Source: a virus (lineage: Duplodnaviria; Heunggongvirae; Uroviricota; Caudoviricetes). Taken from it: DNA of 27,610 bases. Below are positions 2,216 through 27,610 of this stretch, one piece after another. The position numbers were made by a program, and so were the translations under genes. The notes below the pieces were generated by a model. That model was not told the origin of the DNA. It saw only the letters and a list, made by a program, of their open reading frames with translations, and did no database searches. The stretch lies in the IMG/VR virus record IMGVR_UViG_2529292919_000027; one strand, given 5' to 3'. Position 1 is the first letter of the stretch. Each line of letters opens with the position of its first letter.

Positions 2216-2216
2216 A

Positions 2217-3532: not shown

Positions 3533-3540
3533 GCGGAGCC

Positions 3541-7636: not shown

Positions 7637-8221
7637 GTGGGTAAAGAACCTGAATGGAAAGTTGATAAACAACCAGCATGGCTGGTGGCAGCAATACGAA
7701 GAACGATTGCTGATTTACCTCATGGCTATGAGGAAGCAGCAGAAATTCTTGGTTTGTATAAATCTGATGATATCACCCCAGCAAAAGATCAATTGCATAA
7801 CAGACTGCGTAGCGGTGGGGATCAAATTTTTCCACTTGAGTGGGCCATGGTTTTACAGGATGCCAGTGGTACCAGGCATGTAACAGATGCAATAGCCCGT
7901 CGTAGTAATGGGGTGTTTGTGCCGCTGGTGGTCATTGATGACATTGACAATGGTGACATTAATCAGCGGCTGATGGAGTCAATAGAATGGATTGGCAAGC
8001 ATTCCCAGTACTTACGCAAGGCAACTGCTGATGGAGTTATTGACCAGGCTGAGCGTGAGCAAATCGAAGAGAACAGCTACCAAGTAATGGCGAAGTGGCA
8101 GGAGCATTTAACACTGTTATTTCGTGTTTTTTGTGCGCCGGAAAAGAGTAACGCCCGCGAGTGTGCAGCTCCGGGCGTCGTGGCGTCGATTGCTTCTGGT
8201 TGTGGAGAAACTAACGCATGA
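7637..8221 (+). CDS. CII-like phage regulatory protein (CP76 family-like)
   Basis: GTG start after cro; 194 aa; position and size match CII/CP76-type regulators; family assignment from memory. Confidence 0.45.
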   Translation: MGKEPEWKVDKQPAWLVAAIRRTIADLPHGYEEAAEILGLYKSDDITPAKDQLHNRLRSGGDQIFPLEWAMVLQDASGTRHVTDAIARRSNGVFVPLVVIDDIDNGDINQRLMESIEWIGKHSQYLRKATADGVIDQAEREQIEENSYQVMAKWQEHLTLLFRVFCAPEKSNARECAAPGVVASIASGCGETNA

Positions 8222-13162: not shown

Positions 13163-14158
13163 GTGACCGTGAGAGCACTACTGACCCCTGAAATTGCCCC
13201 GCGTATGGGGATCGTATTGTTCAGGCCAGGTTCAGAGCTGATGCCCCTGTTTATGCAGGGGCGTGTCCTGCTGGAGCCAGAGCCGGAACGTTATTCATCT
13301 TTCGCCAGTGGTGCCGTTCCGGCGGCATCACAACCGCTGGCGGATGATCCTGCCGTTCGGACCGTGTTCCGCAATGAGGCAGTGATCCGTCGTGCTGGTG
13401 GCGTGGAATGTCTTGAAAGCTGGTTACTTCGTGAAAAAGGTTGCCAGTGGCCTCATTCCGACTGGCACAGCGAGAACATGACCACAATGCGACACACGCC
13501 GGGCGCAATCCGTCTGTGCTGGCACTGCGATAACCAGCTGCGCGATCAGTTCACGGAACGGCTGGAATCAATGGCAACGGATAACTGTACCCGCTGGGTG
13601 TTGTCTGTTGTGCGTCGGGATCTCGGTTTTGATGACAGTCACGTTGTGACAATGCCGGAACTGTGCTGGTGGCTGATTCGTAATGACCTGGCGGATGCCT
13701 TACCGGAAAGTGCAGCCCGTAAGGCACTGAGATTACCGAAGCCTGTTGTGCCGTCTGTCACCCGGGAAAGTGACCTTGTGCCTTCGGTTCCTGCCACCAG
13801 CATCATCCAGGATAAAGCGAAAAAGGTGCTGGCGCTGAAAGTGGATCCGGAGTCGCCGGAGTCTTTTATGTTACGCCCAAAACGTCGCCGCTGGGTTAAT
13901 GAAAAGTACACGCGCTGGGTTAAGACACAGCCGTGTGCATGTTGTGGAAAGCCCGCTGATGATCCCCACCACCTGATAGGCCACGGTCAGTGTGGAATGG
14001 GTACAAAAGCGCATGACCTTTTTGTGTTGCCTTTGTGCAGAAAGCATCACGACGAGCTGCATGCGGATACCGTGGCATTTGAAGAGAAGTATGGCTCTCA
14101 GCTGGAGCTGATATTTCGTTTTATCGATCGTGCGCTGGCAATTGGCGTACTGGCGTAA
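13163..14158 (+). CDS. DUF968 domain protein (YdfU-like)
   Basis: C-terminal CACCGKPADDPHHL...PLCRKHHDELH motif; GTG start. Confidence 0.55.
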   Translation: MTVRALLTPEIAPRMGIVLFRPGSELMPLFMQGRVLLEPEPERYSSFASGAVPAASQPLADDPAVRTVFRNEAVIRRAGGVECLESWLLREKGCQWPHSDWHSENMTTMRHTPGAIRLCWHCDNQLRDQFTERLESMATDNCTRWVLSVVRRDLGFDDSHVVTMPELCWWLIRNDLADALPESAARKALRLPKPVVPSVTRESDLVPSVPATSIIQDKAKKVLALKVDPESPESFMLRPKRRRWVNEKYTRWVKTQPCACCGKPADDPHHLIGHGQCGMGTKAHDLFVLPLCRKHHDELHADTVAFEEKYGSQLELIFRFIDRALAIGVLA

Positions 14159-14171
14159 GTGGAGAACGAGC

Positions 14172-14924
14172 ATGAACCTTGAAGCCTTACCGAAATATTA
14201 CTCCCCGAAATCTCCAAAACTGAGCGATGACGCACCGGCGACAGGCTCTGGTGGTTTAACAATTACGGATGTGATGGCTGCGCAGGGGATGGTGCAGTCA
14301 AAAGCACCGCTTGGGTTTGCTTTATTCCTGGCAAAAGTTGGTGTTCAGGATCCTCAGTTTGCGATTGAAGGTCTGCTCAATTACGCGATGGCACTGGATA
14401 ACCCGACATTGAATAAATTGAGTGAAGAAACCCGGCTACAGATCATTCCTTACCTTGTGAATTTTGCCTTTGCTGATTATTCCAGGTCTGCGGCAAGTAA
14501 GGCTCGCTGTGAGCATTGTGCTGGTACTGGATTTCATAATGTATTGCGCGAGGTGGTGAAACACTCCAGAAGCGGGGAATCTGTTATTAAGGAAGAGTGG
14601 GTGAAGGAACTATGTCAGCATTGTCATGGTAAGGGAGAAGTCAGCACAGCATGCAGAGGGTGCAAGGGTAAAGGTATTGTCCTGGATGAAAAAAGAACCC
14701 GGCTTCATGGCACGCCTGTTTATAAGGTTTGTGGGCGTTGCAATGGAAACCGGTTTAGCCGTTTACCAACCACACTGGCGCGGCTTCATGTCCAGAAGCT
14801 GGTACCAGACCTGACGGATTATCAGTGGTACAAAGGATATGCAGATGTCATTGATAAACTGGTTACAAAGTGCTGGCAGGAAGAAGCATATGCAGAGATA
14901 CAATTGAGAAAGGTGACAAGATAA
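14172..14924 (+). CDS. antitermination protein Q-like (long Q family)
   Basis: Multiple CxxC zinc motifs (CEHCAGTG, CQHCHGKG, CRGCKGKG, CGRCNGNR); last nin-region gene before terminators and late genes. Confidence 0.6.
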   Translation: MNLEALPKYYSPKSPKLSDDAPATGSGGLTITDVMAAQGMVQSKAPLGFALFLAKVGVQDPQFAIEGLLNYAMALDNPTLNKLSEETRLQIIPYLVNFAFADYSRSAASKARCEHCAGTGFHNVLREVVKHSRSGESVIKEEWVKELCQHCHGKGEVSTACRGCKGKGIVLDEKRTRLHGTPVYKVCGRCNGNRFSRLPTTLARLHVQKLVPDLTDYQWYKGYADVIDKLVTKCWQEEAYAEIQLRKVTR

Positions 14925-14955
14925 ATGGTTTTCGCCGAAGATGACGACATGATGC

Positions 14956-14984
14956 TTGCATTTTTCAAAAAATATGGATAAGAT
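14956..14984 (+). promoter_or_regulatory. candidate late promoter (pR'-like)
   Basis: TTGCAT - 17 nt - TAAGAT upstream of the first terminator; weak consensus match, position-based. Confidence 0.2.
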
Positions 14985-15029
14985 TTTCCCAACGATGGGC
15001 TTTGTATGTCTACCGTTGATAAGATTTAA

Positions 15030-15058
15030 GAACCCGCCGATGCGCGGGTTTTTTTGTA
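15030..15058 (+). terminator. intrinsic terminator (tR'-like) downstream of Q
   Basis: cccgc cgatgc gcggg hairpin followed by T8. Confidence 0.6.
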
Positions 15059-15234
15059 CCCAGAATCCTGTGAGCTATACGGAAAGTACACAGAAAGGAA
15101 GGTGCGACCACAATTAATAACAAAATCTTAAAAATTGCACATGGCACTATTAGTTTTCTAAATATTGTGTATTTTTTGTATTGCAGGATGACCCTGTAAC
15201 GAAGTTTGCGTAACAGCATTTTGCTCTACGAGTT

Positions 15235-15266
15235 TGCCAGCCTCCCCCAGTGGCTGGCTTTTTTAT
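15235..15266 (+). terminator. second intrinsic terminator downstream of Q
   Basis: gccagcc ... ggctggc stem followed by T6. Confidence 0.55.
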
Positions 15267-15386
15267 GTCTGTAGCGTCAAAGCAGCAATGTCGCTGGGGC
15301 GTCGTGCAATTGGCGTTGAGCTGGAGACTGAACGTTTTGAGCAGACGGTCAGGGAAGTTCAGGATTTAGTCAGTCAGAACGGATGA
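15267..15386 (+). pseudogene. 3' remnant of a DNA methyltransferase gene
   Basis: Frame reads ...KAAMSLGRRAIGVELETERFEQTVREVQDLV, resembling MTase C-terminal motif; no 5' part or start present. Confidence 0.3.
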
Positions 15387-15426
15387 TATTGCAGAATTAG
15401 TTACGTACCGTTATTATCCTGCGCCC

Positions 15427-15502
15427 GGCCCTTTAGCTCAGTGGTGAGAGCGAGCGACTCATAATCGCCAGGTCGCTGGTTCAAATCCAGCAAGGGCCAC
15501 CA
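15427..15502 (+). tRNA. tRNA-Ile2 (anticodon CAU; Met-type anticodon, ileX/ileZ-like)
   Basis: Cloverleaf by eye: acceptor ggccctt/aagggcc, D-arm gctcagtggtgagagc, anticodon loop ctCATaa, T-arm ggttcaaatcc, CCA end; near-identical to E. coli ileX as recalled. Confidence 0.8.
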
Positions 15503-15509
15503 TCACATA

Positions 15510-15586
15510 CCGCCATTAGCTCATCGGGATAGAGCGTCAGCCTTCGAAGCTGGCTGTGCGGGGTTCAAGTCCCCGATGGCGGTCCA
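15510..15586 (+). tRNA. tRNA-Arg (anticodon UCG)
   Basis: Acceptor ccgccat/atggcgg, anticodon loop ctTCGaa, T-arm ggttcaagtcc, CCA end. Confidence 0.75.
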
Positions 15587-15599
15587 TTATCAGCATCAT

Positions 15600-15676
15600 G
15601 CGTTGTTAGCTCAGTCGGACAGAGCAATTGCCTTCTAAGCAATCGGTCACTGGTTCGAATCCAGTACAACGCGCCA
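15600..15676 (+). tRNA. tRNA-Arg (anticodon UCU)
   Basis: Acceptor gcgttgt/acaacgc, anticodon loop ctTCTaa, T-arm ggttcgaatcc, CCA end. Confidence 0.75.
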
Positions 15677-15687
15677 TATTTATTTAC

Positions 15688-15716
15688 TTGGCTCGCTTTT
15701 GCGGGCCTTTTTTTGT
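15688..15716 (+). terminator. intrinsic terminator after tRNA cluster
   Basis: ggctcgc ttt gcgggcc followed by T7. Confidence 0.5.
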
Positions 15717-15766
15717 ATCTGCGTTACACCATTAACTAATAAATCGAGTGCTTATCAGGAGGCTAT

Positions 15767-15991
15767 GTGAAAAAACTGATGGTGACGATTGGTCCGTTCG
15801 AAACAGAAGTTAGTTTTCGTGTTGTTCAGGGGGAGAGTGTACTTGTTGAAGATGTATTTCATGGAAAATCAACAGGTCCTTATGTAAAAGAATATCTTAT
15901 CGACGCCACGGATGAAAATATTGAGGTGGTGTACGATTCCGTCAATCACCCTGATTTGATCATTAAGGCAAAATTGAAGCCACTTTATTGA
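15767..15991 (+). CDS. small acidic hypothetical protein (74 aa), cargo
   Basis: GTG start 4 nt after AGGAGG; no recognisable family. Confidence 0.5.
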   Translation: MKKLMVTIGPFETEVSFRVVQGESVLVEDVFHGKSTGPYVKEYLIDATDENIEVVYDSVNHPDLIIKAKLKPLY

Positions 15992-16043
15992 TCTGACCGG
16001 GAGCAATCATAAAATATCTCTGGGTACCCACAAGGAGATAAAT

Positions 16044-16253
16044 ATGTTTGTTTCTGAAGTGTTAATGGAAGATAAGGACAACAAAGGATGGGTTAAAGGT
16101 TGGGCTGTGGTAAGAAGCTCGCCCTGGCATCTTGTTGGGGTTTTTGCGACAGAGGAAGACGCAGAAACGGAAGCAAGAAAGATGGGAGATAAGTACGAGG
16201 TTCACTATGGCTCGCATCGAACAGGAAGTGATGATTTTGTCTGGGGGGAGTAA
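16044..16253 (+). CDS. small acidic Trp-rich hypothetical protein (69 aa), cargo
   Basis: ATG 8 nt after AAGGAG; co-transcribed with upstream small ORF. Confidence 0.5.
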   Translation: MFVSEVLMEDKDNKGWVKGWAVVRSSPWHLVGVFATEEDAETEARKMGDKYEVHYGSHRTGSDDFVWGE

Positions 16254-16285
16254 CAGTCGTTTAACCCCAGAATAATCCCGTAACT

Positions 16286-16312
16286 GAGGTCGCTATTGGC
16301 GGCCTTTTTTGT
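16286..16312 (+). terminator. intrinsic terminator after the two small cargo genes
   Basis: ggtcgc tatt gcggcc (one G-U) followed by T6; downstream motif ttttttgtatc.gcg shared with the tRNA terminator. Confidence 0.4.
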
Positions 16313-16442
16313 ATCCGCGCCACGCCCGGCGCATATCAACCACAGAGCCTTTCGGGGGTGAGCTTACGGAGTGGTCAGTGTGACTTTCTCTGTGGGCAGA
16401 TCGCTCCCGGGCGTTGGCTCACCCACCCAAAGGAACGTCACG

Positions 16443-16874
16443 ATGTTTGGTATTTTTGGTAAAAAAGCCCGCCGAGCGGCAGTGGAAATTAAAAAGTTTG
16501 AGAAACGTGATCTGGCACAGGCGGTTATTAATGCTGCCTATCTGGTGGCCTATGCAGATGGTGAATGTGAGGCTTCAGAGAAAGCGAAGATCGAGCAGAT
16601 CTTGCGTAACCAGCCTGCGTTGTCCGCGTTTACGTCAGAAATTAATGCGATTAGCGCAACCATTATCGGTCAGCTGGATACGAACTTTAAAATTGGTCGT
16701 CGAGCGGCATTGCGTGAAATTGAAGATGTGAAACACGATACGCGTGAAGCGGAAGATGTGCTGGATGTGGCGGTGGCCATTGCGGAGGCAGACGGCGAAA
16801 TTGAGCCGGAAGAGCGCAAGGTGCTGGAAGAGATTGCCGGTGTTCTGGGTCTTCGTCTGGAGAATCACCAGTGA
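16443..16874 (+). CDS. TerB-family (tellurite-resistance TerB-like) protein
   Basis: Two TerB-type repeats (AAYLVAYADGECEASEKAKIEQIL and VLDVAVAIAEADGEIEPEERKVLEEIAGVLG) parallel to E. coli TerB; ATG with AAGGA RBS. Confidence 0.6.
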   Translation: MFGIFGKKARRAAVEIKKFEKRDLAQAVINAAYLVAYADGECEASEKAKIEQILRNQPALSAFTSEINAISATIIGQLDTNFKIGRRAALREIEDVKHDTREAEDVLDVAVAIAEADGEIEPEERKVLEEIAGVLGLRLENHQ

Positions 16875-17047
16875 CGGTAAAACTGCGCCTGGCTGTGGCT
16901 GCACTCCTGCTGTTTCTGGTGGTGATGGTGGATTTCACCAGCAGAATCATGTCGGTGCTGGCGGATGGGGTGCTGGTCTGCGGCATTGTGGTATTGCTGT
17001 GGCCGGTGATAAAAAGAAACAGCCTGCATAATGCTTGATTTTTTTAT
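16871..17047 (+). CDS. small membrane protein (58 aa, two predicted TM segments) coupled to TerB-like gene
   Basis: GTG overlapping TerB stop (GTGA); two hydrophobic stretches; short, so uncertain. Confidence 0.4.
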
Positions 17048-17352
17048 TTGCTGTTTATTAAAAATACTACTGCATGGTGAATCCCCCTGTGCGGAGGGGC
17101 GATCAGCAACCAGGTATATGGGATAATCGCGGATTCAGGTGCTGATACTGAATTCACCGGGAGGCACCCGGCACCATGCTTTGCCGCAAAAGTGTTGTTT
17201 CTGTTTTTCTCAAACTATCATCGTTATCCCTTTATTTCCGGCTGCGCATGGCGTGGCCTTTTTTTTACGACCAGCCACTGGCAGATGGCCATCCTGTAAT
17301 TTGATTCCGGTTCCGGCTTTTTAACTCTGTTCCTGTACACGGGAGAAATTCG

Positions 17353-19206
17353 ATGTCGATTAAACATTATGATGTTGTCAGGGCGGCGTCGCCGTCAGAC
17401 CTTGCGGAAAAGCTGACACACAAACTGAAAGAGGGCTGGCAGCCGTTTGGTAGTCCGGTGGCCATAACCCCTTATACCCTGATGCAGGCGATTACAGCAG
17501 AAGGTGATGTGGTGGTCAGTGGTGCAACTGAGCCGGATTGGTACTACGTCATCGTACTGGCCGGGCAGTCCAATGCCATGGCTTACGGTGAAGGGCTTCC
17601 GCTGCCGGATTCATACGATGCTCCGGATCCGCGCATTAAACAGCTGGCGCGCCGCAGTACAGTTACGCCGGGTGGGGCTGCATGCAGATATAACGATATT
17701 ATTCCGGCCGACCACTGCCTGCATGATGTGCAGGATATGAGTACGCTGAATCATCCGAAGGCAGACCTGAGCAAAGGGCAGTACGGCTGTGTCGGCCAGG
17801 GCTTACATATTGCCAAAAAACTGCTCCCGTATATCCCGAATAACGCGGGGATCCTGCTGGTACCATGCTGTCGTGGTGGTTCGGCATTCACCCAGGGCGC
17901 GGAGGGGACATTCAGTGCGGACACGGGGGCCAGCCAGGATTCGGCACGCTGGGGTGTGGGTAAACCGTTATATCAGGACCTGATTGCGCGCACTAAAGCT
18001 GCATTACAGAAGAACCCGAAAAATGTGTTGCTGGCGGTGTGCTGGATGCAGGGAGAGTTTGACATGAGCGCCGCCACCCACGCACAGCAACCTGCGCTGT
18101 TTACAGCCATGCTGACACAGTTTCGTGCTGACCTCTCCGTGTTTAACGCGCAGTGCCATGGTGGCAGTGCTGCAGATGTGCCGTGGATTTGTGGTGACAC
18201 GACGTATTACTGGAAAAATACATACGCTACCCAGTACGACACCGTGTACGGCGGGTATAAAAACAGGGAGAGTGAGGGCGTTTATTTTGTGCCCTTCATG
18301 ACAGACGGTAACGGCGTCAATACCGCCACTAACGCACCGGCAGAAGATCCGGATATTCCGGCATCAGGATATTACGGTGCGGCATCGAGAACGAATGGAA
18401 ACCAGGTATCATCAAACCGCCCGACACATTTCAGTTCATGGGCGCGCAGGAGCATTATTCCGGATCGTATGGCAACCGCTATTCTGAACGCAGCCGGGCG
18501 CACCTCAGCTTTCATCAGTGGTAAGGCACCGGAAATCAAACCCTCGCCCGGCGGCAACACGCCATCGGGGCCGTCTGAAGATGCATCCGTACGCACAATC
18601 TCCCTGTTGCCGACAGCCGGAGAGGCTGCTGCGCAGGGCTGGACCATTAAGGACGGCGGAATTCAGTTGTCGGGTGGTGTATTTAAGATCGCCAAGCAGA
18701 GCAATAAAACCTGGTCCCTGATGCATCCGGTGGATGACGCAGTCTCCCTGCTGACACGGGGTGGCAGACTGAGCTGTAAGTTTCGACTGTCAGGCGCACT
18801 GACCAACAACCAGTTCGGCCTGGGAATTTATCTGTATACCGATGTAGCGTTACCTGACGTCGTGGCGATGACCGGGACTGGTAACCCGTTCCTGATGTCG
18901 TTCTTCACCCAGACCACAGACGGCAAACTGAATCTGATGCATCACAAGAAAGCAGGAAACACAAAGTTGGGCGAGTTCGGGAATTACAGTAATGACTGGC
19001 AGACGCTGGAACTGGTGTTCACCGCCGGCAGTGCCACGGTTACTCCGAAACTGAATGGAGTGGCTGGCCCGGCATTCCAGGTCATAAAAGACAGTCTGAC
19101 ACTGGGGCTGAATGCGCTGACGCTGACGGATATTACCAAAAATGCAGCGTATGGCGTTGAGATAGAAAGTCTGGTGCTGGAGATAAATGCACCGGCATCA
19201 TCATAA
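17353..19206 (+). CDS. nanS: prophage sialate O-acetylesterase NanS-p-like (DUF1737 + SGNH/SASA esterase)
   Basis: N-terminal DUF1737-like segment and VIVLAGQSNAMAYG esterase motif; position matches nanS-p of Stx phages. Confidence 0.8.
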   Translation: MSIKHYDVVRAASPSDLAEKLTHKLKEGWQPFGSPVAITPYTLMQAITAEGDVVVSGATEPDWYYVIVLAGQSNAMAYGEGLPLPDSYDAPDPRIKQLARRSTVTPGGAACRYNDIIPADHCLHDVQDMSTLNHPKADLSKGQYGCVGQGLHIAKKLLPYIPNNAGILLVPCCRGGSAFTQGAEGTFSADTGASQDSARWGVGKPLYQDLIARTKAALQKNPKNVLLAVCWMQGEFDMSAATHAQQPALFTAMLTQFRADLSVFNAQCHGGSAADVPWICGDTTYYWKNTYATQYDTVYGGYKNRESEGVYFVPFMTDGNGVNTATNAPAEDPDIPASGYYGAASRTNGNQVSSNRPTHFSSWARRSIIPDRMATAILNAAGRTSAFISGKAPEIKPSPGGNTPSGPSEDASVRTISLLPTAGEAAAQGWTIKDGGIQLSGGVFKIAKQSNKTWSLMHPVDDAVSLLTRGGRLSCKFRLSGALTNNQFGLGIYLYTDVALPDVVAMTGTGNPFLMSFFTQTTDGKLNLMHHKKAGNTKLGEFGNYSNDWQTLELVFTAGSATVTPKLNGVAGPAFQVIKDSLTLGLNALTLTDITKNAAYGVEIESLVLEINAPASS

Positions 19207-19288
19207 AAAGTGAGCCAGCCAAATGGAAGGTATCGTTAAACTCACCGGTAGTGTCAGTGGGTCGTCTGAGATGCCTGCATGAGTTATC

Positions 19289-19323
19289 AGAGCCATCAGT
19301 ACTTAACTGGTGGCTTTTTTTAT
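19289..19323 (+). terminator. intrinsic terminator between nanS-p and holin
   Basis: agccatcag ... ctggtggct stem followed by T8. Confidence 0.5.
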
Positions 19324-19356
19324 TGCTGTCAGCTTCCGGATAACGGGAGACGGGGT

Positions 19357-19572
19357 ATGTACCAGATGGAAAAAATCACAACAGGTGTGTCATACACCAC
19401 GTCAGCGGTGGGAACGGGCTACTGGTTCCTGCAGTTGCTGGACAGGGTTTCCCCGTCTCAGTGGGCGGCAATAGGCGTGCTGGGGAGTCTGCTGTTTGGG
19501 CTGCTGACATATCTGACTAACCTGTATTTCAAAATCAGAGAGGACCGTCGTAAGGCGGCGCGGGGGGAGTAA
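19357..19572 (+). CDS. class II holin, S21-like pinholin with dual start
   Basis: 71 aa with MYQMEK dual-start, sequence very close to phage 21 S (…[45 protein letters not shown]). Confidence 0.85.
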
Positions 19573-19576
19573 AGCG

Positions 19577-19615
19577 ATGAAGAAAAAATACGAACTGGGT
19601 GTTAAAGGGATAAAT
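19577..19615 (+). pseudogene. 5' fragment of a YdfR/DUF1327-like gene interrupted by IS66
   Basis: ATG 19577 reads MKKKYELGVKGIN then enters the IS; continues in frame after the IS if one target-site duplication copy is removed. Confidence 0.5.
19608..19615. repeat. left 8-bp target site duplication GGATAAAT
   Basis: Left copy reads GGATAAAT immediately before the IS inverted repeat; the right copy is inferred. Confidence 0.55.
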
Positions 19616-19668
19616 GTAACCGGCTCATTTAAACCGTCTGGTCTGTTTCCTCCGGCTCTACAAAAATA

Positions 19669-20010
19669 ATGTCCATCATTTTTAATGGACACTATCGTAT
19701 GAAACACCGGACCTGGATCACTGAAGCTTTACGTCTTCACTTTGAAGAACATTTACCCCGGGTTGTGGCCGGGCGTCGCCTGGGTGTACCAAAATCAACA
19801 GTTTGTAGTATGTTCGTGCGCTTTCGGAGAGCTGGCCTTTCGTGGCCTTTGCCCGCAGGCATGTCGGAGCAGGAACTTGATGCCTGCCTTTACGGACAAT
19901 TTTCCACGGTACCAGTCGTACGTCCTGAAAGCACCGTTATATCCGAAGCCCCCGTGGTAAAAAACGTCCCCGGCGGCCCAACTTCCCTTATGAGTTTAAA
20001 ATCGCCTTAG
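19669..20010 (+). CDS. IS-encoded HTH ORF upstream of tnpA (possibly the frameshifted N-terminal part of tnpA)
   Basis: 113-aa ORF with HTH-like RRLGVPKSTV; ends where the tnpA frame opens. Confidence 0.4.
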   Translation: MSIIFNGHYRMKHRTWITEALRLHFEEHLPRVVAGRRLGVPKSTVCSMFVRFRRAGLSWPLPAGMSEQELDACLYGQFSTVPVVRPESTVISEAPVVKNVPGGPTSLMSLKSP

Positions 20011-20345
20011 TGGAGCAGTCACTGCAGCCCGGAGCCTGTGTGGCGCAGATCGCCCGGGAAAACGGAATCAACGATAACCTGCTCTTCAACTGGCGCCATC
20101 AATACCGGAAAGGTGGCCTGCTGCCTTCCGGAAAAAATATGCCGGCACTGCTTCCCGTGACGTTAACGCCGGAGCCGGATAATAAAATCCCGGCCCCCGC
20201 ACAGGAACCAGAGCAGATAAATACACCGTCCGACAGTCTGTGTTGTGAGCTGGTTCTGCCGGCCGGAACTCTCAGGCTTAAAGGTAAACTGACGCCGGCG
20301 TTATTACAGACACTTATCCGCGAAATAAAAGGGAGCAGCCACTGA
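20010..20345 (+). CDS. tnpA: IS66-family accessory protein TnpA (orfA), start uncertain
   Basis: PRRPNFPYEFK...VAQIARENGINDNLLFNWRHQYRKG HTH motif; frame open from 19929 without ATG; ORF track start is GTG at 20010. Confidence 0.6.
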   Translation: MEQSLQPGACVAQIARENGINDNLLFNWRHQYRKGGLLPSGKNMPALLPVTLTPEPDNKIPAPAQEPEQINTPSDSLCCELVLPAGTLRLKGKLTPALLQTLIREIKGSSH

Positions 20346-20692
20346 TGATATCTCTCCCTGCAGGTTCGCGTATCTGGCTGGTTGCAGGTATCACCGATAT
20401 GCGAAATGGCTTTAACGGCCTGGCATCAAAAGTTCAGAACGTCCTGAAGGATGACCCGTTCTCCGGACACCTGTTCATCTTCCGCGGACGCCGGGGTGAC
20501 CAGATAAAAGTGTTGTGGGCTGACAGTGACGGACTGTGCCTCTTCACCAAACGCCTGGAGCGGGGCCGCTTCGTCTGGCCAGTCACCCGTGACGGCAAGG
20601 TGCACCTTACTCCGGCTCAGTTATCCATGCTTCTTGAAGGTATCAACTGGAAGCACCCGAAACGAACGGAACGCGCTGGAATCCGCATATAA
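20345..20692 (+). CDS. tnpB: IS66-family TnpB (Orf2)
   Basis: Recalled IS66 Orf2 sequence (MISLPAGSRIWLVAGITDMR...HLFIFRGRRGD.IKVLWAD.DGLCLFTKRLE). Confidence 0.85.
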   Translation: MISLPAGSRIWLVAGITDMRNGFNGLASKVQNVLKDDPFSGHLFIFRGRRGDQIKVLWADSDGLCLFTKRLERGRFVWPVTRDGKVHLTPAQLSMLLEGINWKHPKRTERAGIRI

Positions 20693-20711
20693 CCCGTTGT
20701 AAAGTGAGGAT

Positions 20712-22283
20712 ATGGACACCTCACTTGCTCATGAGAACGCCCGCCTGCGGGCACTGTTGCAGACGCAACAGGACACCATCCGCCAGATGGCTGAATACAA
20801 CCGCCTGCTCTCACAGCGGGTGGCGGCTTATGCTTCCGAAATCAACCGGCTGAAGGCGCTGGTTGCGAAACTGCAACGTATGCAGTTCGGTAAAAGCTCA
20901 GAAAAACTTCGTGCAAAAACCGAACGGCAGATACAGGAAGCACAGGAGCGAATCAGCGCACTTCAGGAAGAAATGGCGGAAACGCTGGGTGAGCAATATG
21001 ACCCGGTACTGCCATCCGCCCTGCGCCAGTCTTCAGCCCGTAAACCGTTACCGGCCTCACTTCCCCGTGAAACCCGGGTTATCCGGCCGGAAGAGGAATG
21101 CTGTCCTGCCTGTGGTGGTGAACTCAGTTCTCTGGGATGTGATGTGTCAGAGCAACTGGAGCTTATCAGCAGCGCCTTTAAGGTTATCGAAACACAACGT
21201 CCGAAACAGGCCTGTTGCCGGTGCGACCATATCGTGCAGGCACCAGTACCTTCAAAACCCATTGCACGCAGTTATGCCGGAGCGGGGCTTCTGGCCCATG
21301 TTGTCACCGGGAAATATGCAGACCATCTGCCGTTATACCGCCAGTCAGAAATATACCGTCGTCAGGGAGTGGAGCTGAGCCGTGCCACACTGGGGCGCTG
21401 GACAGGTGCTGTTGCTGAACTGCTGGAGCCGCTGTATGACGTCCTGCGCCAGTATGTGCTGATGCCCGGTAAAGTCCATGCTGATGATATCCCCGTCCCG
21501 GTCCAGGAGCCGGGCAGCGGTAAAACCCGGACAGCCCGGCTGTGGGTCTACGTCCGTGATGACCGTAACGCCGGTTCACAGATGCCCCCGGCGGTCTGGT
21601 TCGCGTACAGTCCGGACCGGAAAGGTATCCATCCACAAAATCACCTGGCCGGTTACAGCGGTGTGCTTCAGGCCGATGCTTACGGTGGTTACCGGGCGTT
21701 ATACGAATCCGGCAGAATAACGGAAGCCGCGTGTATGGCTCATGCCCGGAGAAAAATCCACGATGTGCATGCAAGAGCGCCCACCTACATCACCACGGAA
21801 GCCCTGCAGCGTATCGGTGAACTGTATGCCATCGAGGCAGAGGTCCGGGGCTGTTCAGCAGAACAGCGTCTGGCGGCAAGAAAAGCCAGAGCCGCGCCAC
21901 TGATGCAGTCACTGTATGACTGGATACAGCAACAGATGAAAACACTGTCGCGTCACTCAGATACGGCAAAAGCGTTCGCATACCTGCTGAAACAGTGGGA
22001 TGCACTGAACGTGTACTGCAGTAATGGCTGGGTGGAAATCGACAACAACATCGCAGAGAACGCCTTACGGGGAGTGGCCGTAGGCCGGAAAAACTGGATG
22101 TTCGCGGGTTCCGACAGCGGTGGTGAACATGCGGCGGTGTTGTACTCGCTGATCGGCACATGCCGTCTGAACAATGTGGAGCCAGAAAAGTGGCTGCGTT
22201 ACGTCATTGAACATATCCAGGACTGGCCGGCAAACCGGGTACGCGATCTGTTGCCCTGGAAAGTTGATCTGAGCTCTCAGTAA
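20712..22283 (+). CDS. tnpC: IS66-family transposase TnpC
   Basis: N-terminal leucine zipper, CPACGGEL zinc motif, DDE region; 523 aa. Confidence 0.85.
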
Positions 22284-22313
22284 ATATCAATACGGTTCTG
22301 ACGAGTCGCTTAC

Positions 22314-22321
22314 GGATAAAT
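22314..22321. repeat. right 8-bp target site duplication (GGATAAAT inferred)
   Basis: My reading gives ggataaaa here; ORF-track frame implies one extra base, consistent with GGATAAAT. Confidence 0.45.
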
Positions 22322-22627
22322 AATTACCCGGATAAGATTACTGTTACTGTGGCACTGGAAATTGGTGGGTATCCGTCACTGTTGTTGCCAGATGTGGCGA
22401 TTAGTCTTGACCGTACTGAAGGTGCCACGCTGGAGTTTTACGAAGCTGAGGCGAAAAAGCAGGCGAAGCAGTTTTTCATGGATGTTGCTGCCGGGTTATG
22501 TGAAGGGGATGGTCCGTTGCCGGAAAAGCGGCCCATCATTTTAGAGGCGCAGGATGTGTTGATAACCTACAGAGGAAAACTACCGGGAATAATTACTGGT
22601 TCTCTGAAGACTCCACCGCTGGCCTGA
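22322..22627 (+). pseudogene. 3' fragment of the IS-interrupted YdfR/DUF1327-like gene
   Basis: ORF track 22349..22627 (…ALEIGGYPSLLLPDVAISLDRTEGATLEFYEAEAKKQAK…); in frame with the 5' fragment across the IS. Confidence 0.5.
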
Positions 22628-22677
22628 AGACTTAATATATCCAGGGATTTGAAATCGATAAACCCTGATAAATATCC

Positions 22678-23211
22678 ATGAACGCAAAAATCAGATACGG
22701 CCTGTCGGCTGCCGTTCTGGCGCTGATTGGTGCAGGGGCGTCTGCGCCTGAAATCCTCGACCAGTTTCTTGACGAAAAAGAAGGTAACCACACCACGGCA
22801 TACCGTGATGGTGCGGGTATCTGGACCATCTGCCGCGGTGCCATCCTGGTGGATGGTAAACCTGTCGTCCCGGGCATGAAGTTGTCGAAGGAAAAATGCG
22901 ACCAGGTTAACGCCATTGAACGTGATAAGGCGCTGGCATGGGTGGAGAAAAACATCAGAGTGCCACTGACCGAACCCCAGAAAGCGGGGATTGCGTCATT
23001 CTGTCCGTACAACATTGGTCCTGGTAAGTGTTTCCCGTCGACGTTTTACAGACGAATTAATGCAGGTGATCGCAGGGGAGCGTGTGAGGCGATTCGCTGG
23101 TGGATTAAGGACGGTGGCAGAGACTGCCGTATTCGTTCAAACAACTGTTACGGTCAGGTATCCCGTCGTGACCAGGAGAGCGCGCTGGCGTGCTGGGGTA
23201 TCGACAGATAA
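22678..23211 (+). CDS. SAR endolysin (T4-lysozyme-like, GH24)
   Basis: N-terminal signal-anchor-release segment (GLSAAVLALIGAGASAP), catalytic region resembling R21/P1 Lyz. Confidence 0.8.
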   Translation: MNAKIRYGLSAAVLALIGAGASAPEILDQFLDEKEGNHTTAYRDGAGIWTICRGAILVDGKPVVPGMKLSKEKCDQVNAIERDKALAWVEKNIRVPLTEPQKAGIASFCPYNIGPGKCFPSTFYRRINAGDRRGACEAIRWWIKDGGRDCRIRSNNCYGQVSRRDQESALACWGIDR

Positions 23212-23299
23212 GCAGAATATTTTGCTGAAAAATAAGGCATGGCCACGCGGGCGGATAACACGAAATCCTGCGAACTGGCGAAACGTAAGTGAATAAAAG

Positions 23300-23340
23300 T
23301 AAAAACCCCGTTTGTTGGCACCAAGCGGGGTTTTGTGTTT
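23300..23340 (+). terminator. intrinsic terminator after endolysin
   Basis: ccccgtttg ... caagcgggg stem with T-rich tail; A-run upstream. Confidence 0.45.
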
Positions 23341-23367
23341 CTGACCTTGAGTAAGGCAAGGGAGAAC

Positions 23368-23550
23368 ATGGCGAAGTATAAACGAATTCTGTTGAGGTTG
23401 ACTATGAAAAATGGCCTTGAACTGAAAGCGCCTGTAACTGATGACATCAGCAGAGCACTGGCTTTTGCCATTAAGTGGGTGGCGGTCGGTGTTGCTGTGT
23501 CCCCGATGCTGTATGGGCTGGCAAAACTGGTCATTGCGTTGAAATCGTGA
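23368..23550 (+). CDS. small protein with C-terminal TM segment (60 aa)
   Basis: ATG after AGGGAG; hydrophobic C-terminus; lies between endolysin and Rz. Confidence 0.4.
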
Positions 23551-23564
23551 AGGGAGGATTAAGC

Positions 23565-23696
23565 ATGTCAGACAAACTCATAACGCTGGCGAAGATCCTC
23601 TGTGTAATTGTCGGCATTTCATTTTCACTAATGCTGGTTGCTCTTTTTCTTTCCATGGCCTGGATGATGTTGTCTTCGTCGGGGTTGCTGGGGTGA
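23565..23696 (+). CDS. small hydrophobic membrane peptide (43 aa)
   Basis: ATG after AGGGAGG; single TM; stop overlaps Rz start region. Confidence 0.4.
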
Positions 23697-23707
23697 ACAT
23701 AAACCGA

Positions 23708-24166
23708 ATGCTTTCCGCGTTTATCGTTATTCTGCTGGTGGCCTGTGGTGCGCTGTGGATGGCAACAGACCATTACCGTGATAACGCGATTACCTACAAA
23801 GCGCAGCGCGATAACAAAGCCAGTGAACTGAAGCTGGCGAACGCAACCATTACTGATATGCAGGTGCGCCAGCGCGATGTTGCTGCGCTCGATGCAAAAT
23901 ACTCGAGGGAATTATCCGATGCGAGAGCTGAAAATGAAACTCTGCGCGCTGATGTTGCCGCTGGTCGTAAGCGCCTGCGGATCAACGCCACCTGTCCAGG
24001 CTCCGTGCGTGAAGCCCCCACCACCTCCGGCGTGGATAATGCAACCGGCCCCCAACTGGCAGACACCGTTACACGGGATTATTTCACCCTCAGAGAGCGG
24101 CTGATGACGATGCACAAGCAACTGGAAGGGGCACAGGACTATATCCGCACTCAGTGCCTGAAATAA
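23708..24166 (+). CDS. Rz: Rz i-spanin
   Basis: N-terminal [17 protein letters not shown]...DVAAGR.RL motif matching Rz; ORF track 23693..24166. Confidence 0.8.
23919..24104 (+). CDS. Rz1: Rz1 o-spanin lipoprotein (embedded in Rz, +1 frame)
   Basis: Lipobox LVVSAC and [14 protein letters not shown] proline-rich motif as in lambda Rz1. Confidence 0.75.
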
Positions 24167-24516
24167 GTTTTGTTGATGCGCCGTATCGTCGCTGTATTCC
24201 CTCATTAACAGAGACCGCAGCCCGACAGGGAGACTCCTCTGCGCGAGTGTGCGGGGATAATCAAAAACGATACACACCGGGGTTTACCGCGTTAACGGAG
24301 CGCGGCGTTGTCCCCTCATAGTCGCCTGTCCGGTGCGATGGTGGAAGAAGCCGGATGTTTATCACTATTAATTGATGACACAGAAATGGATTCATTGAAT
24401 TTCAGCACGTTTTTGTATTCGTGTTATTGAACATCTGTTTATTTTACTTTTAACATATTGATAATAAAAAGAGCTGTAAATCTTTAGATGAGTCGATTTT
24501 GTCCGGGGAAGTTCAA

Positions 24517-24657
24517 ATGGATTTTATGCTGACGGTTTCTGGTGTGGTTATCCTGTCCATTGCTTATACTGCAGATAAATATGGCTGCCATTTGTTATCA
24601 CGTATTGGCGCTTATTGTTCGTTGATGCTGATTTTCTCGTCGCTTTTTTTTGAGTAA
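24517..24657 (+). CDS. possible small hydrophobic peptide (46 aa)
   Basis: ATG after GGGGA RBS; possible extended -10 TGATAAT upstream; AT-rich island. Confidence 0.25.
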   Translation: MDFMLTVSGVVILSIAYTADKYGCHLLSRIGAYCSLMLIFSSLFFE

Positions 24658-24789
24658 GTTATATTAATTATAACAAATAATTTTCTGTGTTATTTTTTCA
24701 GGCTATCCCGTCAGAGGGGAAGCCTGTACTGCCGGGGAGCGAATGGAAAACTGATGTGTCCGGTAACTGCGTGTTCTGTGAACACCATG

Positions 24790-24975
24790 TTACTTAATTA
24801 TGTAATTCATACCCGAACTCTCTGTTGACAGCCTTCTTCTGCAGGCTTCAATAACCCACGCTGAAAAGTTTCCTGAACCTTTCAGATCAAGAGCGATGTT
24901 AATTTGTTCAATCATCTGGTTTGGAAATCGGATGTTGCGGGTTGTTGTTCTGCGGGTTCTGTTCTTTGATGACAT
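24790..24975 (-). CDS. ribbon-helix-helix (CopG/Arc-like) DNA-binding protein
   Basis: Basic N-terminus, predicted beta-strand TRNIRFP then two helices; GGGGA RBS; palindromic site upstream. Confidence 0.5.
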   Translation of the reverse strand: MSSKNRTRRTTTRNIRFPNQMIEQINIALDLKGSGNFSAWVIEACRRRLSTESSGMNYIIK

Positions 24976-25037
24976 AATGTTTCCCCATATTCAGTGTTGC
25001 TGATTTGTATTATCTGAAGTTGCTTTTACGTTAATTT

Positions 25038-25080
25038 GACGCAGATCAATTAATACGATACCTGCGTCATAATTGATTAT
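25038..25080. promoter_or_regulatory. nested palindrome upstream of the RHH gene (candidate operator)
   Basis: gacgcag ... ctgcgtc and atcaattaat ... ataattgat inverted repeats. Confidence 0.3.
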
Positions 25081-25159
25081 TTCTCGTGGTTTGATGGCGT
25101 ACACACATGTTGTGATAAACCTTATATAGATGATAATCATTATCATTTCGTGGGTCCTT

Positions 25160-25360
25160 TCCGGCGATCCGACCGGTTACGGGGCGGCGACCTCGCGGGT
25201 TTTCGCTATTTATGAAAATTTTTAGGGAAAAATCAGATCCGTTCTTCTTCTTTTTAACTGTTTGATTATCAATAGAATTTTAAAAATATAAAAGGATCTG
25301 ACAAAGGCTGTTTTTGTTAGAAAACGCCATTTTCAGATCCTTTCTGGTTCCCGGGGGAGT
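25160..25360. promoter_or_regulatory. cos site: cosN (cohesive end GGGCGGCGACCT at about 25182-25193) and cosB-like repeats
   Basis: Sequence ccggcgatccgac.ggttacggggcggcgacctcgcgggttttcgctatttatgaaaattt matches the recalled lambda cos junction; cagatcc/ggatctg repeats downstream. Confidence 0.75.
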
Positions 25361-25362
25361 GT

Positions 25363-25911
25363 ATGAACGTCAATAAGAAAAAACTGGCCGATATTTTTGG
25401 CGTTGATGTCAGGACCATCACCGCCTGGCAGAGTCAGGGGTTACCACTTAGTTTCTGGTGGAGGGAAAGGGACTGAATCAGTTTTGATACAACTGCTGCC
25501 ATTCAGTGGTATGCGCAGAGGGAAGCTGATATTGAAAACGAAAAACTCCGTAAAGAGAGCGAGGATTTGAGGGCTGCCAGCGAATCAGACCTTCAGCCCG
25601 GCACCATTGATTACGAACGTTACCGACTGACGAAGGCACAGGCCGATGCACAGGAGCTGAAAAATGCTCGTGAGGAAGGCCTTGTCCTCGAGACGGAGTT
25701 ATTTACCTACATCTTTCAGCGAGTGGCACAGAATATATCAGGGATCCTTGTCCGTGTCCCTCAGACACTGCAGCGTAAATACCCTGATATATCACCCGCA
25801 CATCTTGATGCTGTGAAAACTGAAATCGCGAAAGCATCCGATGTGGCTTCTGAAGCCGGTGAGAATGTGCGCAGGTGGATTGATGATTTCAGACGAACTG
25901 AGGGCGGCTAA
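25363..25911 (+). pseudogene. nu1: terminase small subunit (Nu1-like) interrupted by a frame-shifted patch and in-frame TGA
   Basis: N-terminus [26 protein letters not shown] matches lambda Nu1; stop at 25474-25476; conserved GGGKG segment in +1 frame; frame restored before AAIQWYAQ. Confidence 0.65.
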
Positions 25912-27610
25912 TTCTGCAGGAGCGATAGCAACCGGCCTCCTTGCGCTAAAAATTCCTGTCCCTCTGACGACAGTTCAGTGGGCAGATCGACATTATTACC
26001 TTCCGAAAGAGTCATCTTACACCCCGGGGCGGTGGGAAACACTGCCGTTTCAGGTTGCCATCATGAACAGCATGGGGAATGACCGGATCCGCACTGTTAA
26101 TCTGATTAAATCTGCCCGTGTTGGTTATACAAAGATGTTGCTGGGAGTGGAGGCTTATTTTATTGAGCATAAATCACGCAACAGCCTTCTTTTCCAGCCC
26201 ACGGATTCTGCTGCTGAAGATTTTATGAAATCTCATGTGGAACCCACGATCAGGGATGTGCCGGTTTTACTCGATCTTGCACCGTGGTTTGGGCGTAAAC
26301 ATCGTGATAATACCCTCACGCTGAAACGCTTTTCATCGGGCGTCGGTTTCTGGTGCCTGGGCGGCGCTGCCGCCAAAAACTACCGTGAAAAATCCGTGGA
26401 CGTGGTCTGCTATGACGAACTTTCCTCGTTCGAGCCGGATGTCGAAAAAGAGGGCTCGCCAACCCTGCTGGGGGATAAGCGTATTGAGGGGTCGGTGTGG
26501 CCAAAATCCATTCGCGGCTCGACGCCTAAAATCAAAGGCACCTGCCAGATCGAAAAAGCGGCCAACGAGTCGGCGCATTTCATGCGTTTTTATGTGCCCT
26601 GCCCGCACTGTGGGGAGGCGCAGTATCTGAAATTTGGCGATGAGTCCACGCCTTTTGGGCTTAAATGGGAGAAGGACAGTCCCGAAAGCGTTTTCTACCT
26701 CTGTGAACATCATGGCTGCGTGATCCATCAGTCTGAGCTTGACCAGAACAACGGGCGGTGGATCTGTGAAAACACGGGCATGTGGACCCGTGACGGTCTG
26801 ACGTTTTTCAGCGCCCGGGGTGATGAAATTCCGCCGCCGCGCTCCATCACGTTCCATATCTGGACGGCGTACAGTCCGTTCACCACCTGGGTACAGATTG
26901 TCTATGACTGGCTGGATGCACTGAAAGATCCCAACGGCCTGAAAACCTTTGTGAACACCACGCTGGGCGAGACCTGGGAAGAGGCCGTGGGCGAAAAACT
27001 CGATCACCAGGTACTGATGGATAAGGTGGTGCGTTACACGGCGGCGGTGCCTGCCCGGGTGGTTTATCTGACGGCGGGCATTGACTCGCAGCGAAACCGT
27101 TTTGAGATGTATGTCTGGGGATGGGCTCCGGGAGAGGAAGCTTTTCTGGTGGATAAAATCATCATTATGGGGCGTCCTGATGAGGAAGAGACGCTGTTAC
27201 GTGTGGATGCGGCGATCAACAAAAAATACCGCCATGCGGATGGCACCGAAATGACTATTTCCCGTGTCTGCTGGGACACCGGGGGGATCGATGGTGAAAT
27301 TGTTTATCAGAGATCAAAAAAACACGGTGTTTTCCGGGTGCTGCCGGTAAAAGGCGCATCTGTCTATGGCAAGCCGGTGATCACCATGCCAAAAACCCGC
27401 AATCAGCGGGGCGTGTATCTGTGTGAAGTGGGAACGGACACCGCAAAAGAAATTCTCTATGCCCGTATGAAAGCCGATCCCTCGCCTGCGGATGAAGCCA
27501 CGTCGTATGCCATCCGTTTTCCTGATGATCCGGAGATTTTTTCGCAGACAGAGGCGCAGCAACTGGTGGCGGAAGAGCTGGTGGAGAAGTGGGAAAAAGG
27601 AAAGATGCGT
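25883..27610 (+). CDS. terminase large subunit (gpA-like), 3' end beyond window
   Basis: Continuous frame to window end, closely parallel to lambda gpA (…WETLPFQ..IMN.MG.D.IR.V...KSARVGY.KMLLGV.AYFIEHK…); absent from ORF track, presumably because it has no stop in window. Confidence 0.9.

Follow-up and report, generated by a model that had tools for sequence, protein, structure and literature searches.

Interruption of ydfR by ISCro1 in the lysis cassette of a lambdoid Escherichia coli prophage

The lysis cassette and the interrupted gene

The DNA analyzed is a stretch of 27,610 nucleotides from a tailed phage (IMG/VR record IMGVR_UViG_2529292919_000027), referred to below as the window. Positions 13669-26010 are identical, without a mismatch, to the E. 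coli draft contig AIEY01000066.1 (GCA_000249115.2), which was traced through an exact protein match to the frameshifted TnpA fragment. The lysis region contains a holin gene, a ydfR gene split by an insertion sequence (IS), an endolysin gene, and the Rz/Rz1 spanin pair, with a late antiterminator gene upstream. The prophage features are as follows:

14172..14924, + strand: late antiterminator gene of the Q type, preceding the lysis block (PF03589 Antiterm, 6.7e-53; annotated at 250 aa in the matching public contig)
19357..19572, + strand: class II holin of the phage 21 S type, 71 aa, intact (PF04971 Phage_holin_2_1, 9e-33, profile positions 1-63 of 64; PHROG holin families)
19577..19615, + strand: ydfR 5' fragment, 13 codons, reading into the IS and stopping after 30 aa (translation; alignment to intact ydfR)
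22322..22627, + strand: ydfR 3' fragment, 101 codons plus stop (ORF list; the restored protein matches DUF1327)
22678..23211, + strand: endolysin, 177 aa, T4-lysozyme fold, SAR-like N-terminus, intact (PF00959, 3.3e-24)
23708..24166, + strand: Rz (i-spanin), intact (PF03245, 7e-47)
23934-24104: Rz1 (o-spanin lipoprotein), embedded in Rz in another frame, intact (lipobox LVVSAC; phrog_3198 "Rz-like spanin", 1.1e-26)

Domain and homology matches placed the element between the holin and a lysozyme related to the SAR endolysin of phage 21, with Rz/Rz1 downstream, as the first-pass annotation of this DNA had stated. The holin begins with MYQM, offering Met1 and Met4, and has two transmembrane-like segments free of charged residues (7-25 and 36-54). 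By analogy with the work on phage 21, it may act as a pinholin that forms small holes. Residues 9-174 of the endolysin aligned to the phage 21 lysozyme 3HDE (5.4e-17) and to RrrD (4ZPU), and the E-D-T catalytic triad is present as E35, D44, and T50. Its N-terminus aligned to that of R21 and carries an 18-residue uncharged stretch (YGLSAAVLALIGAGASAP; 61% Gly/Ala/Ser/Thr) with a Pro after ASA. These features point to a putative SAR endolysin resembling R of phage 21. The Rz1 translation has a Pro-rich tail.

The order of class II holin, DUF1327 gene, SAR-like lysozyme, and Rz/Rz1 is that of essQ-ydfR-rrrQ in the Qin prophage of E. coli K-12 and of S-R-Rz in phage 21. The window differs from these cassettes in its interrupted ydfR and in the further separation of R and Rz by approximately 480 bp, in which two short conserved ORFs and a hairpin resembling a terminator are found. 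The holin-ydfR-lysozyme order was seen in the window and at loci L001, L003, L017, L018, and L019. In this assembly, nu1 is split, with indels near 25448 and 25481, and the contig ends inside the large terminase gene. Linkage to stx was considered for the NanS-p-like esterase and the tRNAs, and it was rejected: no stx genes were found there, and the region corresponding to stx in a related prophage (L002) is occupied by TerB and DUF3927 genes.

Joining 19577-19615 to 22322-22627 yielded one open frame of 114 aa, starting with MKKKYELGVKGINNYPDKITVTVALEIGG. The first-pass annotation had predicted such a frame of about 120 aa; the peptide it quoted was exact, and the length was near enough. The restored protein matched DUF1327 at 9.3e-45 (PF07041: 151.2 bits, cutoff 25, residues 1-112) and phrog_406 at 1e-63, and 110 of its 114 residues (96%) are identical to those of WP_112048496.1, an intact YdfR family protein. 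The YdfR-like identity proposed for the split gene was thereby borne out. An uninterrupted holin-ydfR-lysozyme block was present in 2,059 of 5,426 complete E. coli genomes, so the empty-site homologue that the earlier reading called for does exist; the best empty site is contiguous across the junction at 98.1% identity.

The insertion point lies at codon 13/14 of ydfR and parts YdfR residues 1-13 from the remainder. The gene is inactivated, leaving a 30-aa fusion peptide at the 5' side and a start-less remnant at the 3' side; the only internal start listed for the 3' fragment is a GTG at 22349 (92 aa). For annotation, the ydfR frame should be treated here as a pseudogene disrupted by ISCro1. 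YdfR of K-12 has been reported to bind the catalytic (N-terminal) domain of RNase E, and possibly RNA, with the RNase E interaction surface lying within its first 72 residues (PMC13232886).

The ISCro1 element and its transposition into ydfR

The element, its termini, and its genes are located as follows:

19608..19615: left copy of the 8-bp target-site duplication GGATAAAT (base-level reading; alignment to intact ydfR)
19616..22313, + strand: ISCro1 (IS66 family), 2,698 bp, canonical copies 2,699 bp (identity to ISCro1-annotated copies; termini shared with other genomes)
19616..19637: left terminal inverted repeat GTAACCGGCTCATTTAAACCGT (inverted-repeat pair)
19669..20010, + strand: tnpA N-terminal ORF, 113 aa, ended by a frameshift (ORF list, alignment; no Pfam match alone)
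19959..19964, + strand: A6 run, A7 in three other ISCro1 copies, splitting a 225-aa TnpA (alignment)
20010..20345, + strand: tnpA C-terminal ORF, 111 aa, HTH domain (PF01527 HTH_Tnp_1, 5.7e-10)
20345..20692, + strand: tnpB, IS66 Orf2-type accessory protein, 115 aa, intact (PF05717, 4.7e-40; NF033819, 5.2e-38)
20712..22283, + strand: tnpC, DDE transposase, 523 aa, intact (PF03050, 2.5e-103; zf-IS66, LZ_Tnp_IS66, IS66_C; NF033517, 2.4e-143)
22292..22313: right terminal inverted repeat, reverse complement GTAAGCGACTCGTCAGAACCGT (inverted-repeat pair)
22314..22321: right copy of the target-site duplication GGATAAAT (base-level reading; alignment to intact ydfR)

The protein matches upheld the earlier assignment to the IS66 family, with TnpB_IS66 at 4.7e-40 and DDE_Tnp_IS66 at 2.5e-103, alongside zf-IS66, LZ_Tnp_IS66, and IS66_C. 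TnpC covered profile positions 1-283 of 284 in PF03050, matched PF13005, PF13007, and PF13817, and reached 477.9 bits with NF033517 (cutoff 180). The NCBIfam equivalogs for IS66 TnpA, TnpB, and the transposase were all matched. The Rfam search gave no RNA family within the IS or ydfR. The inverted repeats recommended for inspection were found at the element ends as an imperfect 22-nt pair, complementary at 16 of 22 positions. Both arms begin with GTAA, a trait of the IS66 family, whose terminal repeats measure about 20-30 bp.

Among the best matches listed, copies named "IS66-like element ISCro1 family transposase" by PGAP were 100.0% identical over the full length, and at least 80% of the element was present in 1,493 genomes. 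The bit score of the full-length matches would fit one 1-nt gap. The element is ISCro1 with tnpA-tnpB-tnpC, seemingly identical to many E. coli copies save for one base. Its termini, gene order, and 8-bp duplication are the same as those of PGAP-annotated E. coli ISCro1; it differs in having 2,698 rather than 2,699 bp, with A6 for A7, a comparison made with the PGAP-named copies. ISCro1 was described in Citrobacter rodentium ICC168 (PMC3072379). It shares the three-ORF organization and the 8-bp target duplication with IS66 (Machida 1984) and IS679 (Han 2001), the founding, functionally studied family members as cited in PMC6778807. It is nevertheless distinct from both, and its TnpA has an N-terminal extension of approximately 110 aa with no Pfam match alone.

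The two copies of GGATAAAT, at 19608-19615 and 22314-22321, form a perfect direct repeat abutting the outer ends of the inverted repeats, as had been claimed for the flanks of the element. The chance of an 8-mer match at two positions fixed by the inverted repeats is about 4^-8 = 1.5e-5. Across the whole window, GGATAAAT occurred three times against 0.81 expected, a statistic less relevant than the position-fixed match. The uninterrupted homologues contain a single GGATAAAT, and both ydfR flanks overlap on that copy in the alignment. An 8-bp target duplication is stated for IS66 (PMC6778807); in the window, staggered cleavage and repair left a duplication of this length, typical of the family. 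The same element termini were found in six other genomes. Flanking sequence was examined for five of these genomes, each of which has a different 8-bp duplication, and this recurrence independently confirmed the element boundaries.

An assembly artefact, in which a repeat was misplaced into ydfR in a draft genome, would be a different account of the same arrangement. The source is a draft contig, the evidence for the exact junction comes from a single inspected draft contig, and other suspect 1-nt indels lie at or beside homopolymer runs in tnpA and nu1. A left-junction megablast found the exact junction in none of the 5,426 complete E. coli genomes (0/5,426), the nearest being strain 129, 6 bp away; it was also missing from the GTDB species representatives and the IMG/VR viral contigs. 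Both junctions nevertheless lie inside one 81-kb contig, and five closed genomes carry comparable insertions, each bounded by an 8-bp duplication of its own. An exact 8-bp duplication that is single-copy in empty sites is a signature of transposition that a mis-join does not yield. We regard an artefact as extremely improbable. The insertion of the IS into ydfR between holin and endolysin is a real, ordinary event of an already-catalogued kind.

The one base that sets this copy apart splits tnpA. When one A was added, a 225-aa TnpA resulted, which matched the IS66 accessory TnpA family NF038385 at 295.8 bits (cutoff 150); NF047595 matched residues 102-219 of the repaired protein. In the window, the GTG start of the C-terminal ORF overlaps the stop of the N-terminal ORF (TAGTG). 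Reportedly, Han found in 2001 that all three ORFs are needed for transposition. The frameshift may leave this copy non-autonomous, so that it relies on ISCro1 copies elsewhere; alternatively, the A6 run may be a homopolymer error of the draft assembly. One can speculate that TnpA is rescued by -1 slippage of the ribosome on A_AAA_AAC or by re-initiation at TAGTG. Since both the split tnpA and the split nu1 may be draft homopolymer errors, they should not be over-read as decay.

The perfect duplication, the otherwise intact target ORF, and an IS seemingly identical to other copies together argue for a recent insertion. The weight of the finding is small, as the IS is already known, the accessory gene that it hits is non-essential, and IS elements are common in prophages.

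Predicted expression of the lysis genes downstream of the element

The first-pass annotation considered the insertion likely to be polar on late lysis-gene expression, which probably overstated the case. According to this proposal, the IS would act as a polar block, the endolysin and spanins would be under-expressed, and induction would give poor lysis or none. In its favor, the IS moves R away from S by 2.7 kb of foreign DNA. The terminator scan, however, found no terminator-like site on the + strand within the IS (19616-22313). Such sites were found on the + strand at 15690, 16286, 17240, 19289, and 23302. These lie on the lysis strand, so the late transcript must already pass them, among them several strong terminator-like hairpins.

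The tnpA frameshift could leave a ribosome-free stretch open to Rho. The IS ORFs are nevertheless co-directional with the lysis genes and would be mostly translated, and the tnpA stop and GTG start overlap. A Q antiterminator is also encoded upstream, and complexes containing Q withstand termination at hairpins as well as by Rho (PMC12360218). Once loaded with Q, RNA polymerase terminates poorly for tens of kilobases, and polarity suppression by lambda Q is documented (PMC12360218; bioRxiv 10.1101/2022.03.25.485794). We assumed the same polarity suppression for the PF03589-type Q of this prophage, taking lambda Q, Q21, and Q82 as models. ISCro1 in the afa promoter region lowered the expression of the neighboring operon (PMC8764528), but this is a promoter case and not one of intra-operon polarity. 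The start region of R is unchanged, with the IS 364 bp upstream of the R start. Strong polarity of the insertion on the late lysis genes seems unlikely.

We consider it very probable that the locus records one evolutionarily recent transposition of ISCro1 into ydfR of a lambdoid E. coli prophage, with the late transcript still reading through to R and Rz/Rz1. Late transcription from pR' under Q antitermination would read through the co-oriented IS, and R and Rz/Rz1 would still be expressed downstream of it. The effect on lysis would be modest and would come from the loss of YdfR rather than from polarity. Against this reading stands the 2.7 kb added to the transcript, which changes mRNA length and processing and possibly stability. 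The insertion probably does not switch off lysis, and loss of lysis should not be assumed in inducibility work on this prophage.

Constitutive expression of R driven by the IS was also considered. It was dropped because, at the right IS end, the promoter scan showed no sigma-70-like site facing outward on the + strand.

Other ISCro1 insertions between holin and endolysin

Six further independent ISCro1 insertions between holin and lysozyme were found in other genomes, all co-oriented with the lysis genes. The interval from the holin stop to the R start thus held seven: that of the window, five in ydfR (complete genomes), and one in the ydfR-R spacer. The five ydfR insertions, in O103:H2 strain 129 (Stx1a prophage), B1_2, Dog168, USVAST219, and fS25a, share the IS, the target gene, and the orientation with the window, and each has an 8-bp duplication. 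They are independent and lie at different positions, with the duplications GTTAAAGG, CTACAGAG, GTTGAAGG, ACTTTAGC, and GGCGAAGC as compared with GGATAAAT in the window; the site in strain 129 is only 6 bp upstream of ours. In these five closed genomes, the broken gene is already annotated by PGAP as a partial DUF1327/YdfR.

The initial result of five of five in the same orientation was biased, since the query fixed the orientation. Mirror-image queries were then run for both junctions, and they found no opposite-orientation ISCro1 in the interval from holin stop to R start. Just outside this interval, opposite-orientation copies do occur: a lineage of 32 genomes has one upstream of the holin, and in NCCP 13717 one apparently sits in the lysozyme gene.

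The holin-endolysin interval, mainly ydfR, might be a preferred or tolerated landing site for ISCro1, in the sense orientation only, with the late promoter boosting the transposase on induction. All 7 of the 7 independent insertions are co-oriented with the lysis genes, and the mirror-image searches left the interval free of reversed copies. The sample is small, however, and the interval was picked after the fact (two-sided binomial p ~0.016). The target duplications have no shared consensus, reversed copies lie just outside, and a rough estimate from target size predicts about 2 insertions where 5 were observed, a difference that is not compelling. IS elements are also enriched in prophages generally (PMC3072379). 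A strong claim of orientation bias was rejected as post hoc and drawn from a small sample, and we consider a preferred landing site improbable. If it were true, sense-only retention would mean that Q-antiterminated read-through spares lysis and that the spread of the IS is tied to the lytic cycle of the phage. An orientation bias that held in a large survey would be a small, testable clue to the coexistence of IS elements with antiterminated phage operons.

IS insertions in the late region of Stx prophages are on record as insertionally inactivated stx2 genes (Kusumoto 2000, as cited in PMC8136144). In those cases, as here, a lambdoid prophage carries the IS within its Q-dependent late operon. 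They involve a different IS and a toxin-gene target, whereas the insertion in the window hits only an accessory gene.

Insertion of ISCro1 in ydfR

The element was flanked by two copies of the octamer GGATAAAT, with imperfect inverted repeats directly inside them.

Boundaries of the insertion
19608-19615, target-site duplication, first copy
19616-19637, imperfect inverted repeat arm
22292-22313, imperfect inverted repeat arm
22314-22321, target-site duplication, second copy

The 22-nt arms were complementary at 16 of 22 positions, and both started with GTAA. The probability that an 8-mer would match by chance at two positions set by the inverted-repeat ends is about 1.5e-5. The element between the 8-bp repeats measured 2,698 bp. 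Deletion of the element and one repeat copy, joining 19577-19615 to 22322-22627, gave a single 114-aa ORF (MKKKYELGVKGINNYPDKITVTVALEIGG...). The first-pass annotation had described an IS66-family element with a flanking 8-bp duplication, which splits a ydfR-like gene in a restorable open frame. This observation on 19577-22627 was confirmed, including the exact peptide quoted, and its structural interpretation is supported.

The family assignment was borne out as well. Pfam searches of the IS ORFs yielded a TnpA with HTH_Tnp_1, TnpB_IS66 (4.7e-40), and a 523-aa transposase containing LZ_Tnp_IS66, zf-IS66, DDE_Tnp_IS66 (2.5e-103), and the IS66 C-terminal domain; the NCBIfam equivalogs concurred. 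Among the megablast matches listed, the top full-length ones had 100.0% identity, and 1,493 genomes contained 80% or more of the element. In the PGAP annotation, the matching copies are called 'IS66-like element ISCro1 family transposase'; canonical ISCro1 copies are 2,699 bp long.

The reconstructed holin–ydfR–lysozyme stretch (895 bp) was used to search 5,426 complete E. coli genomes. At least 80% of this empty-site query was found in one place in 2,059 of them, and the best match was uninterrupted (98.1% identity). The annotation of strain SCPM-O-B-9504 at the match reads 'class II holin family protein', 'YdfR family protein' (114 aa), and 'lysozyme', and the restored ORF was identical to this YdfR at 110 of 114 residues. 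Base-level alignment showed that both window flanks share one single GGATAAAT in uninterrupted ydfR genes. Intact empty-site homologues thus exist and the flanking 8-mers are identical; therefore, neither objection foreseen in the first reading (a missing homologue, differing 8-mers) holds.

Lysis region and expected gene expression

The gene order in the window agreed with the first reading: ydfR is split between holin and endolysin, with Rz/Rz1 beyond.

Genes and features around the insertion
14172-14924, + strand, Q antiterminator gene (PF03589)
within 15427-17353, downstream of Q, three tRNA genes (CAT, TCG, and TCT anticodons)
within 15427-17353, TerB-family and DUF3927 genes, in the region that holds stx in a related prophage (L002)
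17046-17215, STnc100 sRNA match (102 bits), just upstream of the esterase
NanS-p-like esterase, 617 aa (DUF1737/SASA/DUF6645)
+ strand, holin (PF04971 'P21 holin S', 9e-33) with Met1, Met4, and two uncharged stretches
+ strand, split ydfR with the IS, after the holin and before the lysozyme
+ strand, lysozyme (R), 177 aa; residues 9-174 align to phage 21 endolysin 3HDE and RrrD
23302-23334, strong terminator-like hairpin, 13 pairs, in the R–Rz gap
23368-23550, small ORF, 60 aa (phrog_1115), conserved in phages
23565-23696, small hydrophobic ORF, 43 aa (phrog_4906), conserved in phages
+ strand, Rz (PF03245) with the embedded lipoprotein gene Rz1
+ strand, nu1, then the start of the large terminase gene, after Rz/Rz1

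Region 15427-17353 is laid out as in an Stx prophage, but without the stx genes. The lysis genes of the window were all intact. The lysozyme retains E35, D44, and T50, and its N-terminus contains an 18-residue uncharged stretch rich in Gly, Ala, and Ser. The R–Rz gap of about 480 bp (23212-23707) holds the hairpin and both small ORFs.

At 8578-8766, Rfam placed an isrK Hfq-binding RNA (62 bits) beside a C4 antisense RNA (81 bits), inside or next to a 386-aa ORF (8218-9378) with Ash and Rha domains. The locus resembles a C4-controlled antirepressor module of the P1/P7 kind, situated in the early part of this lambdoid prophage.

ydfR is certainly disrupted by the IS. Its 5' piece encodes 13 native and 17 IS-encoded residues, while the 3' piece has no ATG, its first listed start being GTG at 22349. 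A YdfR product lacking the N-terminus would probably be inactive.

The insertion had also been considered likely polar on late lysis-gene expression. No terminator-like sites were found on the + strand within the IS, whose genes point the same way as the lysis genes. Strong + strand terminator-like sites lay outside the IS, at 15690, 16286, 17240, 19289, and 23302, and the late transcript must pass these anyway. Over tens of kilobases, RNA polymerase loaded with Q is deficient in both pausing and termination (bioRxiv 10.1101/2022.03.25.485794). On these grounds, expression of R and Rz/Rz1 would be expected upon induction; strong polarity of the IS appears unlikely.

The tnpA frameshift and sequence quality

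The difference found from canonical ISCro1 was an A6 run at 19959-19964 in place of A7. It breaks TnpA (225 aa) into two ORFs, of 113 and 111 aa; with one A added, the repaired protein scored 295.8 bits with the IS66 accessory TnpA model, above the cutoff of 150. The 113-aa product was recorded on 23 contigs. Of the ten listed, most belonged to NCBI draft assemblies or were JGI metagenome contigs, and tnpC had further breaks in several.

Window 13669-26010 was identical to contig AIEY01000066.1 of GCA_000249115.2 (0 mismatches); therefore, the window is a public E. coli draft contig. It ends 2 bp short of the contig end. The small terminase gene nu1 (25363-25911) was split by +1 and -1 single-base indels 34 nt apart (near 25448 and 25481), in or next to T runs, as compared with the almost identical gene of E. 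coli BEN2908. This suggests homopolymer errors of the draft assembly, or a decaying prophage. Because nu1 is also broken at or beside T runs, the tnpA frameshift may be a homopolymer error.

Within 19957-20012, as a result of the frameshift, the heptamer A_AAA_AAC stands in the zero frame; this is the -1 slippery motif of the IS1 type. The two tnpA ORFs meet in TAGTG, where the GTG start of the second overlaps the first one's stop, and the second alone corresponds to an IS66 TnpA of normal size (NF047595 covers residues 102-219 of the repaired protein). TnpA might conceivably be rescued in part.

ISCro1 near the lysis genes in other genomes

In five closed E. coli genomes, ISCro1 had inserted into ydfR independently, and the 8-bp duplication was a different one in each.

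ISCro1 insertions between holin and R in other genomes
O103:H2 strain 129, ydfR, GTTAAAGG
B1_2, ydfR, CTACAGAG
Dog168, ydfR, GTTGAAGG
USVAST219, ydfR, ACTTTAGC
fS25a, ydfR, GGCGAAGC
ISCro1 with duplications in these five genomes (L002-L006): L002 4202-6916, L003 4462-7176, L004 4310-7024, L005 3741-6455, L006 3857-6571
O39:H21 PEB08-01, ydfR–R spacer, L017 about 1017-3715

Strain 129 carries its copy in an Stx1a prophage, and the insertion point lies 6 bp upstream relative to that in the window. In the other genomes, the PGAP annotation already records the interrupted ydfR genes as encoding partial DUF1327 proteins. Prophages are documented to be enriched for IS elements (PMC3072379). Both the IS in the window and the kind of target it entered are known.

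We counted seven independent insertions in the interval from the holin stop to the R start: six disrupt ydfR, and the seventh is in the ydfR–R spacer. For the six ydfR insertions (window span 19608-22321 included), the flanks were read, and each duplication differed. All seven were co-oriented with the lysis genes (two-sided p ~0.016); with so small a sample and an interval delimited post hoc, the bias is kept as a lead and not as a finding. Mirror-image queries found no opposite-orientation ISCro1 in this interval.

Opposite-orientation copies occur only a short way beyond its borders. Upstream of the holin, an opposite-orientation ISCro1 adjoining tccP2 occurred in one 32-genome lineage (E. 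coli 08_3449 and 31 others), ending about 20 bp before the holin start (L019 747-3435). The tccP2–ISCro1–holin junction is probably a rearrangement, an IS-mediated join of the effector locus to the lysis cassette. In NCCP 13717, the match span and annotation place an opposite ISCro1 apparently inside the lysozyme gene. The BEN2908 lysozyme gene holds a degenerate, multiply frameshifted, co-oriented ISCro1-like copy (L018 928-4157), a true lysis-gene knockout, unlike the window.
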